A stretch of DNA of 24,000 nucleotides, from contig JBPDWA010000002.1 of assembly GCA_051295955.1 (NCBI GenBank), positions 377,174 to 401,173 of the forward strand, in the 5' to 3' direction. Position 1 is the stretch's first letter. Each line of letters begins with the position of its first letter. A program made the position numbers and the translations under genes. This DNA is from Enterococcus faecalis (lineage in GTDB: Bacteria; Bacillota; Bacilli; Lactobacillales; Enterococcaceae). The notes under the pieces were generated by a model. That model ran no database searches. It saw only the letters and a list, made by a program, of their open reading frames with translations, and was not told the DNA's origin. This document shows, piece by piece, positions 15,049 through 24,000 of this stretch.

Positions 15049-15303
15049 AAAAATTATTTCAACGCTAACAGTTGCCATATAAGAAAAGGAACATTTTCGG
15101 TGTTTTGCTTGGCTAGTGCTTCAACTACTGGTGTTAAGAATGAATTCCAACGCAAATCTGTGTTACTGATAGGAGCGTAGCGTTGGCATGAAATAGTTCA
15201 GGCTAGATACTTCTGTTTAAGCTCTTGGTCTTCTCAAAAATGAATGGCAATACGACAGTGATAGAGTGGTTGTTTTAACGATCTTGGTAGGGTGGTTTTG
15301 AAA

Positions 15304-16362
15304 ATGAATATTTTAAGGGCTTATAAGTTTCGACTTTATCCCACCTCAGAGCAGGCGGCGTTTATTCAAAAGTCATTTTCTGCGGTCCGACTGGTGTACA
15401 ATTTGTTGTTACAAGAACGCATTAGAAACTATAAACAGTTAAAAGAAGACCCTGGCGCAACGATTAAAATTCCTACGCCGGCTAAGTACAAAGAACGGTA
15501 TCCTTTTTTGCGAGAAGTAGACAGTTTGGCTTTAGCGAATGCACAAGTATATTTAGATCGTGCCTTTAAAAATTTTTACCGCGGACGCGCAGTGGGGTTT
15601 CCTAAGCTAAAACGCAAAAATACTGTTCATTCATATACGACGAACAATCAACATGGGACTGTTAAGGTTATTGATGGCCGCTATTTAAAAGTTCCCAAAT
15701 TAAAGACGCCTATTAAAATAGCAGTCCATCGACCGTTACAAGGCGAAATTAAGTCAGTGACGATTTCCGTAAGCTCTAGTGGCAAGTATTTTGTGGCGAT
15801 TTTATGTGAAGAAAACGTGACGGCAAAACTTAAAACTGAAAAGGTAACTGGAATTTATCCTAGTCATCAAGCTTTTGCTGAACTAGCTTCAGGAGAACTG
15901 TTAGACAGTCATCATTCTCATCGATGGCAGCAACGGTTAACAGTTGAAGAGGCTAAATTGCGTCGGCGCAAGCAACTGGCTAACAAAAAAGGTAGGGACC
16001 TTGCTTATTGTAAAAATTATCAAAAACAAAAGAAAAAAGTGGCCACTATTCGTGAAAAATTGTTGAATCAACGTTTGGATTTCTTAAATAAGGTGACCAC
16101 TTCCTTGATTACAGATTACGATATAATCTGTATTGATGATTTGGAACAAAATAAGTTGGAAGCCAAATCAGCTTGTAAACAACAATTGCTGGATTTTTCA
16201 TGGCCATTATTTATTGCCAAATTGGAATATAAAGCATTATGGTATGGTAAAAAAGTGATTCGCCTTTCTGCGTGTGAAAGTACCTTAGCTACGCAATTTC
16301 GTCATCTTGACAAAGCTGGTATCCAACAATTTTTAACTCAGCAAGCTGCCGACGCTGAATAG
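15304..16362 (+). CDS. tldR: TnpB-family (IS200/IS605 OrfB-like) protein, catalytically dead and C-terminally truncated: TldR-like RNA-guided repressor candidate
   Basis: The N-terminus MNILRAYKFRLYPT, WED/REC-like middle and ...FIAKLEYKALWYGKKVI are collinear with ISDra2 TnpB, aligned from memory. The RuvC-I GxDxG motif is GIYPS (Tyr codon 15856-15858). The RuvC-II Glu position is Asp (IDDL, 16135-16137). The CxxC...CxxC zinc ribbon and the RuvC-III DRD motif are absent. No tnpA is present. The ATG at 15304 is preferred over the GTG at 15292. Confidence 0.75.
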   Translation: MNILRAYKFRLYPTSEQAAFIQKSFSAVRLVYNLLLQERIRNYKQLKEDPGATIKIPTPAKYKERYPFLREVDSLALANAQVYLDRAFKNFYRGRAVGFPKLKRKNTVHSYTTNNQHGTVKVIDGRYLKVPKLKTPIKIAVHRPLQGEIKSVTISVSSSGKYFVAILCEENVTAKLKTEKVTGIYPSHQAFAELASGELLDSHHSHRWQQRLTVEEAKLRRRKQLANKKGRDLAYCKNYQKQKKKVATIREKLLNQRLDFLNKVTTSLITDYDIICIDDLEQNKLEAKSACKQQLLDFSWPLFIAKLEYKALWYGKKVIRLSACESTLATQFRHLDKAGIQQFLTQQAADAE

Positions 16363-16507
16363 GAGAAACGCTCCGTTTTTTATGAACTGTAGGGACGACA
16401 GGGATAGCCTAGGGGATAAAAGAAGATCGGTTGATAGCTTCTGTTTCTAGGAAGTTTCCATCGCTTGATGGAAATGGTTCACTAATTATTTTTTAATATG
16501 CTTATAC
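16363..16507 (+). ncRNA. Putative TldR/TnpB guide RNA (omega-RNA-like scaffold 3' part plus guide). The 5' boundary may lie inside the ORF 3' end.
   Basis: Nested helices are present: cctag (16409-16413) / ctagg (16448-16452) enclose agaag...cttct. A perfect 8-bp hairpin follows: tttccatc (16455-16462), gctt, gatggaaa (16467-16474). Next comes tggttcac (16475-16482), then the AT-rich segment taattattttttaatatgcttatac (16483-16507) immediately before a terminator. Confidence 0.55.
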
Positions 16508-16560
16508 AGGACCTTTTGTAGGCGTGTCGTAACCGACAACAAGAGCAAAAGGTCTTTTTA
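16508..16560 (+). terminator. Intrinsic terminator ending the tldR/guide-RNA transcription unit
   Basis: gaccttttg (16510-16518) / caaaaggtc (16546-16554) stem with an inner tgtcg/cgaca helix, followed by ttttt (16555-16559). Confidence 0.75.
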
Positions 16561-16608
16561 TAAATATTTATTATGCATATAAACTACACATAATCATAAT
16601 AAAAATTA

Positions 16609-16623
16609 ATGAAAGCGTTGACT
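16609..16623 (+). promoter_or_regulatory. cre (CcpA) site overlapping the -35 of the bgl promoter
   Basis: ATGAAAGCGTTGACT fits WTGNAANCGNWNNCW at every constrained position. Confidence 0.6.
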
Positions 16624-16646
16624 ACCATGAAGAAAACGGCTATAAT
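16618..16646 (+). promoter_or_regulatory. Sigma-A promoter of the beta-glucoside operon
   Basis: TTGACT (16618-16623), 17 nt, TATAAT (16641-16646). Confidence 0.8.
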
Positions 16647-16697
16647 ACGTTATGTAAGTAAGAAAAAAAAACAGAGATAGCGCAGTAGTTATTTCTA

Positions 16698-16788
16698 GAG
16701 TTATGTTACTGGTTAGCAGGCAGAACTCAGATAAGTATGAGATGAACCAGCCCATGGTTTATTTGATACTTGTCTGAGTTTTTTTTCT
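16698..16788 (+). promoter_or_regulatory. RAT antiterminator target overlapping an intrinsic terminator (BglG/LicT-type attenuator)
   Basis: gagttatgttactggttagcaggcagaactc resembles the RAT consensus (..TGTTACTG...AGCAGGCAAAAC..). The terminator stem aactcagataagtat (16724-16738) / atacttgtctgagtt (16766-16780) is followed by a T-run. The 3' half of the RAT is the left arm of the terminator. Confidence 0.8.
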
Positions 16789-16800
16789 GGAAAGGAGCAA

Positions 16801-17645
16801 ATGATGAAAATTCGTCAAATATTAAACAATAATATTGCTGTAGTAGATCGGGGAGGACATGAGTCCATTATTTATTCAAAAGGAATCGCATTTAAAAAGA
16901 AAGTTGGCCAACAAATCAACGATTCTGAAATTGAAAAAACCTATGTTTTGGATTCAAAAGATCGCTTAGAGCACTTTAGCTATTTGCTATCTCAATCGGA
17001 TGAAACCGCCATCTCTTTCATTAACGAATTGGTGCAATACGGTGAAAAAAGAATCGGCAAAATAGCAAATGATTATTTATATTTGGCACTGTTGGATCAT
17101 GTAACCTTTGCTTTGGAACGAGCAAGAAAAAATCAATTTGTTCGTAGTCCGTTAGCGTGGGAAGTTAAAAAATTTTATCCCGATTACTTTGCGATCGGCT
17201 TACAAGCACTAACGCGAATGCAAGAAATTTATCAGATTGATTTTCCGGAAGATGAAGCCGTTTCCATTGCCTTACACTTTGTAAATTTACAAGAAAACCA
17301 ATCGCATTTAGATGAGCGTCTTGAGGATATGGAAACGCTACGAGATATTTTGAATATCATTAAATATCACTTTAATGAAGAATTCGATGAATCCAGCATG
17401 AATTACATGCGCCTAGTGACCCATCTACAGTATTTTATCGAACGAATGCGTACGAACAATCCTTATGAGGAAAAAGAATCGCTGTTATTTCAACAAGTAA
17501 AAAGTTTGTATCCGGCAGCTTATGATGCGGTGGAAAAAATTGCGATTTACGTAAAAGGAAGATTTAATCAACATCTTTCCAAGGATGAATACACGTATTT
17601 AATGATTCATATTAATCGTGTGACAGAAAGGATGAACGAAGAAAC

Positions 17646-17649
<4 letters not shown>
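16801..17649 (+). CDS. licT: BglG/LicT-family transcription antiterminator (CAT + two PRD domains)
   Basis: MKIRQILNNNIAVV N-terminus (CAT RNA-binding domain) with PRD-like repeats. It sits downstream of the RAT/terminator. The second ATG at 16804 has better spacing to AAAGGAG. Confidence 0.9.
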
Positions 17650-20955
<3,306 letters not shown>

Positions 20956-21169
20956 GCTGCAACCGTAAAATAATGCTTAATTCTTGGGGAAGAAAATGTG
21001 CATCACCAAAGGTTGTAATAGCTTTTCACCGTTATAAACGAAGAACATCTGGAAAAGGCGCTGGCTTTTTCAAGGAGTATAACAAGTTGGCTAAAAGAGA
21101 GACATAAGCAAGCCTGTAAAGCTTCTCAATTCTCTAAGCGTTAAAAACATCTATATAACAATATTTTCC

Positions 21170-21204
21170 AGAGGCGCCAAGAATTTGGCGTCTCTTATTT
21201 TTTT
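21170..21204 (+). terminator. Intrinsic terminator ~215 nt downstream of the glucosidase gene
   Basis: agaggcgcc (21170-21178) / ggcgtctct (21187-21195) stem with one G-U pair, followed by tattttttt. Confidence 0.7.
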
Positions 21205-21787
21205 GAAATAGAGAACACTTTACAAAATTGTACTTCTTTAAAAAAGGAAGGGACACTAAATTTGATTAGCTCCTTTCATATAATTCGTAATAACGTAAAT
21301 TTCTGTGCTCCGGATGTCTGAATGTGTCACAGCTTGTACGATTTCTGTGATAGTCAAGTGTTCCGTATCTTATGGGATCAGCAAGTAGATCATCTGGTTT
21401 TATAAAAATCCCTGTAGAAAAAGCAGATCAACTGTTTAGAGGTACAGAGCCTCTTGAAATGAAAGTTGAAATTTGGGCTTAATTTCCAGTGTTCTATTTT
21501 TGAGAAAACTCAGCTAAAGAAGCTATGAGAAAAACAGCAAAGAATATGGGCAACTTATCTAAAAGTGGTAAATATGATGATAGTGAAATTCCTAAATCAT
21601 CTGTTTTTGTAGCTGATTCTATTTCTGTGGATGAGGAAACAAATGGAACGAAAATAACCAATATGCGAATGGAAGTTTAAAAAAAAGCTCTGGCATTAGG
21701 TAGAGTATAAGTTTGTTTTATAGATGTGATTTTCAAAAGAATTTAATTATGATATAGTTAAATTACTCTTATTTTAAGGAGAAACGA

Positions 21788-22294
21788 ATGAAAAAAAATC
21801 TATTCATAGCTTTAGCCATAATAATTTTAGTAGCAATTGGGGGAGCATGGCACATGAAAAGAGCCAAGGATTTAGCAGAATTACATGAGATTCAGACCGA
21901 TTTAGCTAACTATTTGTATAATAACTATAGGATATATACGTTTAACAAAGAAGAATTAGACCAATTAGATAAAGCATATGATGCTGGGAAAATGACGTAT
22001 CCTGAATATTCTAAATGTTTAGATGAAATAGCTAAATATTCGGATATAAGCAAAATAGAATTTACCGGCTTTTCTGTTAGTCCAATGAATATATTAAAAG
22101 TACAATATACAATCAATGATGTATTGGATAAAGAAACATCTTTGGACACCATTTCAGCTGAGACGAAAAACTTAATATTCAGAGTAGGGGAGCATGATGG
22201 AAAAGGAGTGTATTCCTTAGAAAAAAAGAAAGAAGCAACCAACGTATCTTTGCCGGAAAACCTTGTTATTTATTATGAAGGAGGTATTAAGTGA
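21788..22294 (+). CDS. Small N-terminally membrane-anchored protein (DUF1433-like), paralog 1. Candidate immunity protein.
   Basis: AAGGAG RBS and a single N-terminal TM with no lipobox Cys. It is a paralog of 22535-23056, sharing the blocks KRAKDLAELHEIQTDLANYLYNNYRIYT, YSDISKIEFTGFSV and IYYEGGI. Confidence 0.75.
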   Translation: MKKNLFIALAIIILVAIGGAWHMKRAKDLAELHEIQTDLANYLYNNYRIYTFNKEELDQLDKAYDAGKMTYPEYSKCLDEIAKYSDISKIEFTGFSVSPMNILKVQYTINDVLDKETSLDTISAETKNLIFRVGEHDGKGVYSLEKKKEATNVSLPENLVIYYEGGIK

Positions 22295-22506
22295 TGGATC
22301 AATACAGAATCTTATCTGATGCTTCGTATAATATTGAAAATAAAAAAGTAAAATTAAATACTCGAATTGAAAATACAGATTATATCGTTCTAGACACCAT
22401 CGACACAAACAAAGATTAACTGAGATTTGAAGATAGACCCAGAAACAACGGTATGCAAGCGATGACGGAAAAATCAATTAGAGGAAATCAAGCACATAGT
22501 AAATAA
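22294..22506 (+). pseudogene. N-terminal remnant of a lipase-like gene (paralog of 23056-24000+), with an in-frame stop and loss of the catalytic domain
   Basis: MDQYRILS...LDTIDTNKD is collinear with VDEYRILS...IDTIDTNKD of the intact copy. TAA at 22417-22419 replaces the ACC codon of the intact copy. Homology continues in frame (RNNGMQAMT vs RNNSMQAMT) to a second stop at 22504-22506, after which the next paralog unit begins. Confidence 0.75.
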
Positions 22507-22534
22507 TCGTTCTACATAGAAAAGGAGGGGAAGA

Positions 22535-23056
22535 ATGAATAAGAAAAAAATAGGAGTAATGATATTCATTATTGTAGTACTGATAGGAATAGGAGGAAAA
22601 CTTTCTATGGACAAAAGAGCCAAGGATTTAGCAGAATTACATGAGATTCAGACCGATTTAGCTAATTACTTGTATAACAATTATAGAATTTACACTGTAG
22701 ATAAAGAGAAGGATGAGCAATTAAACACGGAGTACGATAGAGGAAAGGGATCTTTAACGACTAAAGAATTTCTAAAAAAATCAGATGAATTAAAAGAATA
22801 TTCGGATATAAGCAAAATAGAATTTACCGGTTTTTCTGTCGGACCGATGAATACGTTAGAGGCTTATTTGAAAATTAACGATGTTTACGAAGAAGAAGTA
22901 GACTTGGATACATTGTCAGCAGAAACAAACACGTTTATTTATCGCATTACAGATAGTACAGGTAAAGGGCCTTACTATATAGAGAAAAAAAGGAAGCCTA
23001 TAGACTCAGCTATTCCTGAAGCTGCAATTATTTATTACGAAGGAGGAATAGATTAG
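22535..23056 (+). CDS. Small N-terminally membrane-anchored protein (DUF1433-like), paralog 2. Candidate immunity protein.
   Basis: AAGGAGGGG RBS and an N-terminal TM. Its stop TAG overlaps the GTG start of the downstream lipase-like ORF by 1 nt. Confidence 0.75.
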   Translation: MNKKKIGVMIFIIVVLIGIGGKLSMDKRAKDLAELHEIQTDLANYLYNNYRIYTVDKEKDEQLNTEYDRGKGSLTTKEFLKKSDELKEYSDISKIEFTGFSVGPMNTLEAYLKINDVYEEEVDLDTLSAETNTFIYRITDSTGKGPYYIEKKRKPIDSAIPEAAIIYYEGGID

Positions 23057-24000
23057 TGGATGAGTACAGAATATTATCAAAAAGAGTATACCAGATAGAA
23101 GAAGGCATTGTTCAAAAAAACGAAAAAGTAAAAGGAACCAATCATATTGTAATAGACACCATCGACACGAATAAAGACACCTTAAAGATGGAATATTTCC
23201 CGAGAAACAACAGTATGCAAGCGATGACGGTGGCAGAGATTAAAGATGAGTTTAAATCATATAAAGAAAATAAGTTGAAAGAAATCGAAGGCTACCCTCA
23301 ATCGGTAGTAAAAAAAGAGTTAACAATTGTGTATGCGGGAACGAGTGGGTTAAAAGATTGGACCACGGATGCCATCGAAATTGGAATGAATGCCAAATAT
23401 AACAATGGGTCATTCTCTTCAGCAGTAGATTATGCCCGAGAAATTGAAGTGAAGTATCCCAAAGAAGCCGGCTTTACAATTGGCACTTCCGGGCATTCAC
23501 TCGGTGGTGCCGAAGCTATTTATGTGGCAGTTTCACTGGGATACAATGCCATAACCTATGGTGCGGCTGGATCAGGGTTAACCGAGGCACAGATTAAAAA
23601 TTATAAAGGCACTATTGTCAACCTTTATGATACATCAGACATTGTTACTAGCGGATGGATGACTGGTGGGCAGGAAAATATACCATTCTTAAGTATAGGG
23701 ATCGATAATGAAGGGTGGGAAACATTCGGTCATTCATTGGATCAGTTTGAGGTCGATAAAAAAGGCAACTATCTCAATAAATATGGAGATATAGTCATTT
23801 ATTCTGATTTAACTGGTGGAATATCAATTGAACAAACCTTACTAGCGCAACAAATTGTACAAAATAAACACAATATTCGAGGAGTAGAAACCTATGACGG
23901 GACCAATCCCCATTCAATAGCAGAAATTAAACGGCTAAAAGCAGAAAATAAGTGGCTCCAAGCGCAAATCGATAGTTTTACCCAATTAAATGGTTTACGT
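23056..24000 (+). CDS. Lipase-like alpha/beta-hydrolase (class-3 / DUF2974-like, GHSLGG), 3'-partial. Candidate secreted lipase toxin.
   Basis: It is absent from the ORF track, but I translated frame 1 from the GTG at 23056 (RBS GAAGGAGGAA, 7-nt spacer) to nt 24000 and found no stop. It has the nucleophile elbow GTSGHSLGGAEA, candidate Asp in LYDTSDIV and candidate His in ETFGHSLDQF. From ~23900 the sequence becomes helical or coiled-coil-like (IAEIKRLKAENKWLQAQIDSF). Confidence 0.8.
   Translation, partial: MDEYRILSKRVYQIEEGIVQKNEKVKGTNHIVIDTIDTNKDTLKMEYFPRNNSMQAMTVAEIKDEFKSYKENKLKEIEGYPQSVVKKELTIVYAGTSGLKDWTTDAIEIGMNAKYNNGSFSSAVDYAREIEVKYPKEAGFTIGTSGHSLGGAEAIYVAVSLGYNAITYGAAGSGLTEAQIKNYKGTIVNLYDTSDIVTSGWMTGGQENIPFLSIGIDNEGWETFGHSLDQFEVDKKGNYLNKYGDIVIYSDLTGGISIEQTLLAQQIVQNKHNIRGVETYDGTNPHSIAEIKRLKAENKWLQAQIDSFTQLNGLR

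Follow-up and report, generated by a model that had tools for sequence, protein, structure and literature searches.

Why does an enterococcal genome carry, side by side, two small membrane-anchored proteins each followed by a lipase-like open reading frame (ORF), and what does the arrangement encode? The locus in question occupies positions 21788-24000 of a 24,000-nucleotide stretch of Enterococcus faecalis DNA, hereafter the window, which corresponds to G000:C2:377174-401173; contig C2 ends one base past the window, within the lipase gene. An earlier reading made from the sequence letters, here called the original prediction, had proposed a toxin/immunity locus. This interpretation is now supported computationally by homology to parts of two staphylococcal systems, Tsl2 and TslA, and the locus is very likely the left two-thirds of a toxin-immunity cassette of the type VII secretion system b (T7SSb), as judged by sequence comparison and by analogy with those systems. 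The predicted members of the cassette are listed here; the two partner genes lie beyond the window, on the joined contigs.

21788-22294, plus strand: sm1, a 168-amino-acid (aa) Til2-like (DUF1433-related) protein with an N-terminal membrane anchor (ORF call, profile comparison)
22291-22506, plus strand: pseudogene stub of a lipase, comprising codons 1-58 of a diverged allele, from in-frame collinearity with 23056-23230
22291-22419, plus strand: stub ORF of 42 aa (ORF call)
22535-23056, plus strand: sm2, a 173-aa Til2-like membrane-anchored protein (ORF call, profile comparison, AlphaFold2 model)
23056-24000, plus strand: first 315 of 452 codons of a putative reverse-architecture T7SSb-type lipase, comprising the lipase domain and the start of the C-terminal helical domain; continues on C16 and C9
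C9:156-464: partner 1, 103 codons, downstream of the lipase stop
C9:486-743: partner 2, 86 codons, downstream of partner 1 and before infC

What kind of protein is the lipase? Its ORF starts with GTG at 23056 and is open through the window end. It has no strongly hydrophobic segment (Kyte-Doolittle maximum 1.06) and thus lacks a Sec signal. Enterococci commonly encode homologues (E. rivorum, E. silesiacus, E. crotali, E. faecalis and E. mundtii), which are found also in Carnobacterium, Marinilactibacillus and Vagococcus; at their source they are named lipase, Mbeg1-like or DUF2974, with the Pfam entry PF26363 'Phospholipase-like'. When 62 homologues are aligned, H147, S148 (in GHSLG), D195 and H226 are invariant and the SGGGLS motif at 321-326 is mostly so; Ser148, Asp195 and His226 form the predicted catalytic triad of the lipase domain. 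The AlphaFold2 model available for this family is that of P0001, a protein of 456 aa with 97% identity whose gene is on metagenome contig L029 (predicted local distance difference test score, pLDDT, 86; predicted template modelling score, pTM, 0.78). It consists of an alpha/beta-hydrolase domain (residues 1-250) and a set of long helices (258-281, 285-320, 327-381, 387-396 and 401-455), in which SGGGLS 321-326 is the turn that joins helices 285-320 and 327-381. The best match of the model in the PDB is 9cys_A, a lipase effector of the type VI secretion system (T6SS) from an Enterobacter cloacae toxin/immunity complex (Foldseek E 3.4e-4, prob 1.00). A sequence search of the PDB with the lipase gave nothing significant, with fungal class-3 lipases at E ~1, and scans of the small proteins, the partners, the C-terminal domain and the lipase against Pfam, NCBIfam and PADLOC gave nothing significant except a partial SA1320-family match in the lipase domain. 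The gene order of the cassette recurs in E. rivorum (167 aa, 457-aa lipase, 103 aa, 52 aa) and in E. faecalis (four genes of 171 aa, 463-aa lipase, 101 aa, 86 aa).

To our knowledge, only two families of T7SS substrates with reverse architecture have been characterised, both in Staphylococcus aureus. TslA, described with TilA, TlaA1 and TlaA2 by Garrett et al. (2023, Nat Commun 14:8438; PMC10730906), is neutralised by DUF576 lipoproteins (TilA), and its secretion requires both TlaA1 and TlaA2. It carries a G-x-L motif at a helical turn, the leucine of which matters for secretion (PMC10730906). The second family, Tsl2/Til2/TlaM (TslM), was reported by Higginson et al. (August 2026, Microlife uqag031; PMC13560087): the Til2 proteins are DUF1433 proteins with an N-terminal anchor that were shown to be immunity proteins of the T7SS lipase TslM. 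Their genes form variable arrays, pseudogenes included, that are divergent from tsl2, an arrangement that the authors call puzzling; the lipase has the reverse layout and a single WXG100 partner, TlaM (PMC13560087).

How does the window lipase relate to these two? The Tsl2-type comparators were lipases encoded beside true DUF1433 genes, which were gathered from a sample of 401 genomes of the class. Many of these DUF1433 genes are divergent from a lipase of 377-445 aa, and the canonical divergent arrangement is seen at C8 of the window's own genome and at L018 and L023-L025. Profile alignment of the 62 window-type lipases with six DUF1433-linked lipases (hhalign) gave Prob 99.9% and E 1.5e-35 over 228 columns, covering the lipase domain only. 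The TslA-type comparator came from a lipase-profile search of five staphylococcus-like genomes, in which proteins of 447-471 aa match best in the C-terminal domain; in its cassette, a lipoprotein assigned to DUF576 (Pfam E 9.5e-64) is followed by a GHSKG lipase of 465 aa and by genes of 108 aa and 97 aa, and the cassette is called TslA-type from this architecture. The window-type C-terminal domain aligns with that of the DUF576-linked 465-aa lipase at Prob 99.15% and E 3.9e-19 (hhalign), with GGGLS in register, and pairwise BLASTP of the same domains gives E 1e-10. The similarity of the two lipase domains is weak (E ~1e-9).

The small proteins were described in the original prediction as two paralogues of ~170 aa with a single N-terminal anchor, and this holds: sm1 and sm2 are 57% identical across 169 aa (tblastn E 3e-56), and in both of them residues 5-24 form a single strongly hydrophobic stretch (maximum 2.4 on the Kyte-Doolittle scale with a 19-residue window), with no second hydrophobic window above 1.6. 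Their ectodomains presumably lie on the extracytoplasmic side. Neither has a lipobox cysteine or a DUF576 match, as judged from the sequences and from Pfam. The overlaps of stop and start codons that had been noted are also as described. The sm1 stop TGA (22292-22294) sits within GTGATG (22291-22296), the start of the stub ORF, and the sm2 stop TAG (23054-23056) has its G in common with the lipase start GTG at 23056 (TAGTG, 23054-23058); GGAGG stands just 5' of each of the two overlaps.

Are the small proteins DUF1433 proteins, as had been suggested? The suggestion stands for a distant relationship and not for membership at the Pfam threshold. In a profile-profile comparison with 18 genuine DUF1433 proteins, the small-protein family matched over a 48-column conserved strand core (Prob 97.3%, E 1.8e-11). 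In the alignment, the window-type proteins have ~35 additional residues inserted after the 'YLYNNY' helix and before the 'IEFT...PM' strands, as well as a C-terminal extension relative to true DUF1433; their scores fall below the Pfam cut-off because of these two additions. On sequence grounds, sm1 and sm2 are read as distant DUF1433 relatives with an insertion. The AlphaFold2 model of sm2 (pLDDT 82.8) begins with a transmembrane region and a long helix; a helical hairpin is inserted at residues 57-85, and a six-stranded sheet follows. Homologues of the small proteins are present in the laboratory strain E. faecalis OG1RF.

By analogy with the staphylococcal systems, sm2 is probably the cognate immunity protein, translationally coupled to the lipase, and sm1 is probably an orphan immunity gene, the partner of a dead stub. 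That the first lipase copy is dead is confirmed: its 58 codons have a TAA at codon 43, are in frame and collinear with lipase codons 1-58, and encode a sequence with 54% aa identity to the N-terminus of the intact lipase. The stub runs into a deletion junction, 'EKSIRGNQAHSK*', which continues as the upstream region of sm2. The same junction is found at the paralogous locus on C9, where the stub is still open (70 aa, C9:47479-47691), and the deletion that made the stub is thus older than the duplication or spread of the two-module unit. In other species (G458, G460), a stub also lies one immunity gene 5' of a full lipase, which indicates that loss of the toxin with retention of the immunity gene is recurrent. 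The small-protein paralogues are mosaics (window 21788-23053; C9:46964-48235): in the first C9 copy, the middle segment matches that of sm1 and the C-terminal half that of sm2, and KDLAELHEIQTDLANYLYNNY is identical in four copies in the genome, namely sm1, sm2 and the two C9 copies. This pattern would fit gene conversion or recombination. Mosaic immunity paralogues, stubs and multiple copies are hallmarks of polymorphic toxins, and all are present here.

Where does the lipase gene end, and are there partner genes? The original prediction had called the second lipase intact, which the window alone cannot show, since C2 ends inside the gene; the claim is borne out by the 452-aa ORF obtained after the contigs are joined. 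The assembly breaks at the end of C2 because the lipase gene is repeated in the genome, with three 5' ends (at the ends of C2, C9 and C3) and three 3' ends (at the starts of C4, C6 and C9). An overlap graph at k=127 leads from C2 through C16 to C4 or C6, and the first 127 nucleotides of C9 are identical to the C16+C4 path, making C9 a third possible continuation. Synteny helps to choose among them. A homologue of the window gene at 15292-16362 lies ~400 bp upstream of infC in the complete genome G401 of the same genus, the adjacency is found also in G406, and infC is the first housekeeping gene of C9. Metagenome contigs L029 and L030 place the other two lipase 5' ends before C6 and C4, L039 (2179 bp) follows the path C2-C16-C9 in an ungapped, collinear alignment of 99.3% identity, and L038 runs on into infC-rpmI-rplT. 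Continuation of the window lipase via C16 into C9 is thus permitted by the graph and supported by synteny and by L039, and the protein predicted from the joined gene differs from that of L039 at 2 residues. A continuation into C4 or C6, without partner genes, was considered and dropped, because the start of C9 is identical to the graph path and both synteny and L039 favour C9. The idea that C9 is a plasmid was rejected, since C9 carries infC, rplT and metG.

The original prediction had asked for partner genes past nucleotide 24000, and two small partner genes do stand just beyond the window; they have no WXG100 match, and partner 1 is broken in this strain. Across the genome and the metagenome contigs, the partner genes have sizes of 103 aa and 86-87 aa. 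Relative to G401, the licT-bglP-bglA operon, a gene-poor junction and the cassette form a ~9-kb insertion between gene 15292-16362 and infC (window 16363-24000 plus C9:1-1000).

Does the genome encode a machine that could export the lipase? A T7SSb cluster elsewhere in the genome had been named as a thing to look for, and it lies at C2:260-271 kb, on the same contig and ~135 kb upstream of the cassette. It contains WXG100/EsxA (79 bits), YukD (48.5 bits), YukC/EssB (384 bits), EssC (FtsK_SpoIIIE, 2.6e-55) and DUF4176 (2e-26), as well as a 1112-aa EsaA-sized gene. The distribution of the lipase/C-terminal-domain family was compared with that of EssB in 134 Enterococcaceae genomes from 17 genera. 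The family occurs in 37 of these genomes, confined to 3 of the 17 genera, and all 37 have EssB, which is present in 46 of the 134 overall. In genus g159, the family is found in 12 of 13 EssB-positive genomes and in none of the 6 EssB-negative ones; in the window's own genus, G000 has both the family and EssB and G401 has neither. This co-occurrence is supportive, not statistical proof.

Which of the known systems does the cassette resemble most closely? Like Tsl2, the window lipase has an N-terminal GxSxG lipase domain and a C-terminal helical domain, and the lipase domains are homologous; the immunity candidates are small, distantly DUF1433-related proteins with an uncleaved N-terminal anchor, encoded in variable arrays with orphans and pseudogenes, and there are several paralogous loci per genome. 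Unlike in Tsl2, the small proteins are ~170 aa long, with the hairpin insertion of ~35 residues, the C-terminal extension and a DUF1433 score below the cut-off. Their genes are co-directional and overlap the lipase start, whereas those of Tsl2 are divergent; two partners stand downstream instead of one WXG100 gene, and no alignment was obtained between the C-terminal domains of the window-type and the DUF1433-linked lipases. The resemblance to TslA lies in the order of immunity gene, lipase, partner 1 and partner 2, all on one strand, and in an LXG-like, helical C-terminal domain homologous to that of the TslA-type comparator, with a GGGLS turn that matches the TslA G-x-L motif. By contrast, the immunity protein is DUF1433-like and not a DUF576 lipoprotein, without a lipobox, the lipase domain is weakly similar to the DUF576-linked one, and the partners have no detectable similarity. 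The T6SS Tle/Tli pair (PDB 9cys, E. cloacae) is the best structural match and follows the same logic of an exported membrane-targeting lipase and an extracytoplasmic immunity protein, but it belongs to another secretion system, has another trafficking domain and unrelated immunity proteins, and the identity is 16%. On these comparisons, the window locus would be a hybrid, with a Tsl2-like lipase domain and divergent Til2-like immunity joined to a TslA-like trafficking domain, gene order and pair of partners. In the literature searched, the enterococcal family is not described, apart from a remark on a TslA-like four-gene cassette in enterococcal genomes (PMC10730906). The kind of system is known already (TslA in 2023, Tsl2 in 2026); the enterococcal hybrid is a new variation.

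The unit is not confined to the end of the window. Two more copies of the small protein(s)-lipase unit lie at the end of C3 (366895-367276) and at the end of C9 (46964-48683), leading to the starts of C4 and C6; the small contigs C16, C18, C31 and C81 are collapsed pieces of such copies. These two lipases end in 'QINEAVT*', a slightly different C-terminus, and have 47 bp after the stop in common, followed by unrelated genes and no partner genes. The C4 copy abuts a DUF59/licT-phosphotransferase system region and the C6 copy abuts fragments of leuA, leuC and leuD. At C6:1377-3554, HMGL-like leuA and leuC/leuD-like ORFs are present only as short fragments, which suggests that the leucine genes there are pseudogenes.

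Other loci of the same genome carry related putative toxins. A canonical Tsl2-type locus on C8 has a lipase with a helical C-terminus and a single 131-aa helical gene downstream, so that the two types coexist in one genome. Four further loci pair the same C-terminal ASGGGLS helical domain with a 405-aa 'GYSQS'-elbow hydrolase that has no Pfam match.

C8:95870-98327 (L026): Tsl2-type locus of the canonical kind, in which a GHSLG lipase of 377 aa is oriented divergently to a pair of true DUF1433 genes (121 aa and 148 aa, scoring 58-65 bits in Pfam)
C5:107819-110862, minus strand: 'GYSQS' hydrolase locus
C1:140612-142825, minus strand: 'GYSQS' hydrolase locus
C4:126885-129354, minus strand: 'GYSQS' hydrolase locus
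C1:248282-249897, minus strand: 'GYSQS' hydrolase locus

All four 'GYSQS' loci have two downstream partner genes of ~100 aa and ~85 aa, and three of them have an anchored protein of 127-180 aa upstream. The C5 locus is laid out as immunity gene, 82-aa stub, immunity gene and toxin, the same pattern as in the window. On C4 the hydrolase gene is broken into two parts; the second gene on C1 lacks its N-terminal part and has no small anchored gene listed upstream. One small protein of these loci matched DUF1433 at Prob 71%. At C2:66747-68638, a 398-aa GHSLG reverse lipase is flanked 5' by a 109-aa protein without an evident anchor and 3' by a single 118-aa gene. C15 (720 bp, repeated) holds a fragment of a further lipase with 'ASGGGSLS' and lies at two assembly junctions.

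Upstream of the cassette, the gene-poor stretch of ~830 bp that had been reported after the bgl terminator is indeed there: 20956-21787 contains no ORF of 60 aa or more, and the ORF relics in it have no Pfam match. Two signals were recorded in this region.

21170-21195, plus strand: strong terminator-like hairpin after the bgl operon, with an 11-bp stem including 6 GC pairs and then a T-run; left border of the gene-poor junction
21730-21758, plus strand: promoter-like site TTTTCA-17-TATAGT with an upstream TG, 30 bp 5' of the sm1 start; a candidate cassette promoter by consensus match only

Promoter-like sites are no more numerous in this region than expected from shuffling. A 37-codon relic at 21256-21369 on the minus strand ('...AVTHSDIRSTEIYVI...') resembles the C-terminal motif of a tyrosine recombinase, a likeness that is unconfirmed; its assignment as a tyrosine recombinase C-terminus was dropped for want of Pfam support.

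How might the cassette work? In the proposed scheme, its order would be til-like gene 1, lipase stub, til-like gene 2, tsl-like lipase, partner 1 and partner 2. By analogy with TslA and TslM, the C-terminal helical domain together with two bound partner proteins would form the signal recognised by EssC, and the exported lipase would hydrolyse membrane phospholipids of neighbouring Gram-positive cells from outside. The sm2 protein would sit in the membrane of the producer with its DUF1433-derived domain outside, where it would bind and block the lipase domain, and it would be made from the same transcript as the lipase by way of the start/stop overlap. The sm1 gene would be an orphan immunity gene that outlived the deletion of its own lipase, partner genes and spacer, and it probably protects against a different allele carried by competitors. 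We infer secretion, lipid target, topology and immunity specificity by analogy with the two staphylococcal systems.

Several results weigh against this picture. The Pfam DUF1433 model matches the small proteins at E 0.033 and 14.9 bits, below the cut-off of 30.8 bits, and the sm2 model has no match in the PDB by Foldseek, being a fold without a solved relative. The C-terminal domain has no significant sequence match in Pfam or the PDB (EsxA at E ~0.3), and the comparator to which it aligns is called TslA-type from architecture only and is not a named TslA. The partner proteins match neither WXG100 nor any other Pfam family and have no detected similarity to the TlaA1/TlaA2-like genes of 108 aa and 97 aa. 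In the window's own genome, codon 31 of partner 1 (C9:156-464 = L033:156-464) is an in-frame TAA; L038 and L039, which come from strains ~99% identical, have the gene in intact form (103 aa). Finally, the association with EssB is limited to three genera, in which related genomes are not independent.

Could the small proteins instead serve the lipase as helpers? Lipase-specific foldases of Pseudomonas and Burkholderia are likewise N-terminally anchored and encoded beside their lipase, and the lipase might on this account be a secreted nutritional or host-directed enzyme, in keeping with the contribution of TslA to virulence in a mouse abscess model (PMC10730906). A lipase without a Sec signal would have folded before it could encounter a foldase outside the cell, however, and small genes that are arrayed in one to four diverged, mosaic copies and remain in place after deletion of the lipase fit immunity and not a chaperone. 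Moreover, these proteins are related to DUF1433, for which immunity function was shown experimentally (PMC13560087), and the nearest solved structure is that of an interbacterial toxin; a foldase role is improbable. A still more remote idea, which we regard as highly improbable, is that the cassette is an anti-phage abortive-infection module in which the small proteins restrain an intracellular membrane-destroying lipase. Phospholipase effectors are known in several defence systems, but the cassette has no PADLOC family match at a meaningful level and no sensor or nuclease partner, its C-terminal domain is homologous to a T7SS trafficking domain, and the family strictly co-occurs with EssB.

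A different question is whether the cassette, if it is a T7SSb toxin-immunity system, still works in this strain. It may be disarmed, so that no copy is exported, the immunity genes are kept against neighbours and the toxin genes are decaying cargo; this modifies the T7SSb reading and leaves the identity of the parts the same. The nonsense codon in partner 1, where two 99%-identical strains have an intact 103-aa gene, points that way, as do the absence of partner genes from the copies that run into C4 and C6 and end 47 bp past the stop, the decay seen elsewhere in the genome (the stubs and the split hydrolase on C4) and the published description of such loci as commonly losing the toxin while keeping the immunity gene (PMC13560087). 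On the other hand, the lipase ORF seems to be intact in all three copies, the genome has four to five paralogous partner pairs at other places (28-34% identical) that might stand in, and the stop rests on one base of a draft assembly and could be an error. Disarmament is thus possible but rather doubtful. Export of the window lipase and of the two partner-less copies may be impaired in this strain, unless other partner pairs take over or the stop codon is an artefact of assembly.

How widely might such trafficking parts have been reused? A broader and tentative proposal, to which we give slightly less than an even chance, is that the TslA-like C-terminal domain and its two partners constitute a portable 'reverse' trafficking module. 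In enterococci, this module would have been fused to at least three N-terminal hydrolase families (the GHSLG lipase, the lipases of 398-414 aa and the 405-aa 'GYSQS' hydrolases), each with its own DUF1433-derived anchored immunity family. Reverse T7SS substrates would then form a broad class of polymorphic toxins with the variable end at the N-terminus, the TslA and Tsl2 lineages would have exchanged lipase domains, immunity types and trafficking domains, and in this strain the window cassette would be the sole source of partners for three lipase copies.

For a T7SS specialist, the locus is a useful extension and not a surprise. It ties together two known families, with lipase and immunity parts that lead to Tsl2 and a trafficking domain and gene order that lead to TslA, and its co-transcribed, overlapping immunity and toxin genes would provide a natural test case, in contrast to the divergent arrangement of S. 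aureus. Some 158 'hypothetical' enterococcal proteins without a Pfam assignment become candidate immunity proteins, and the findings suggest that the class of reverse toxins is larger, and modular, in enterococci.

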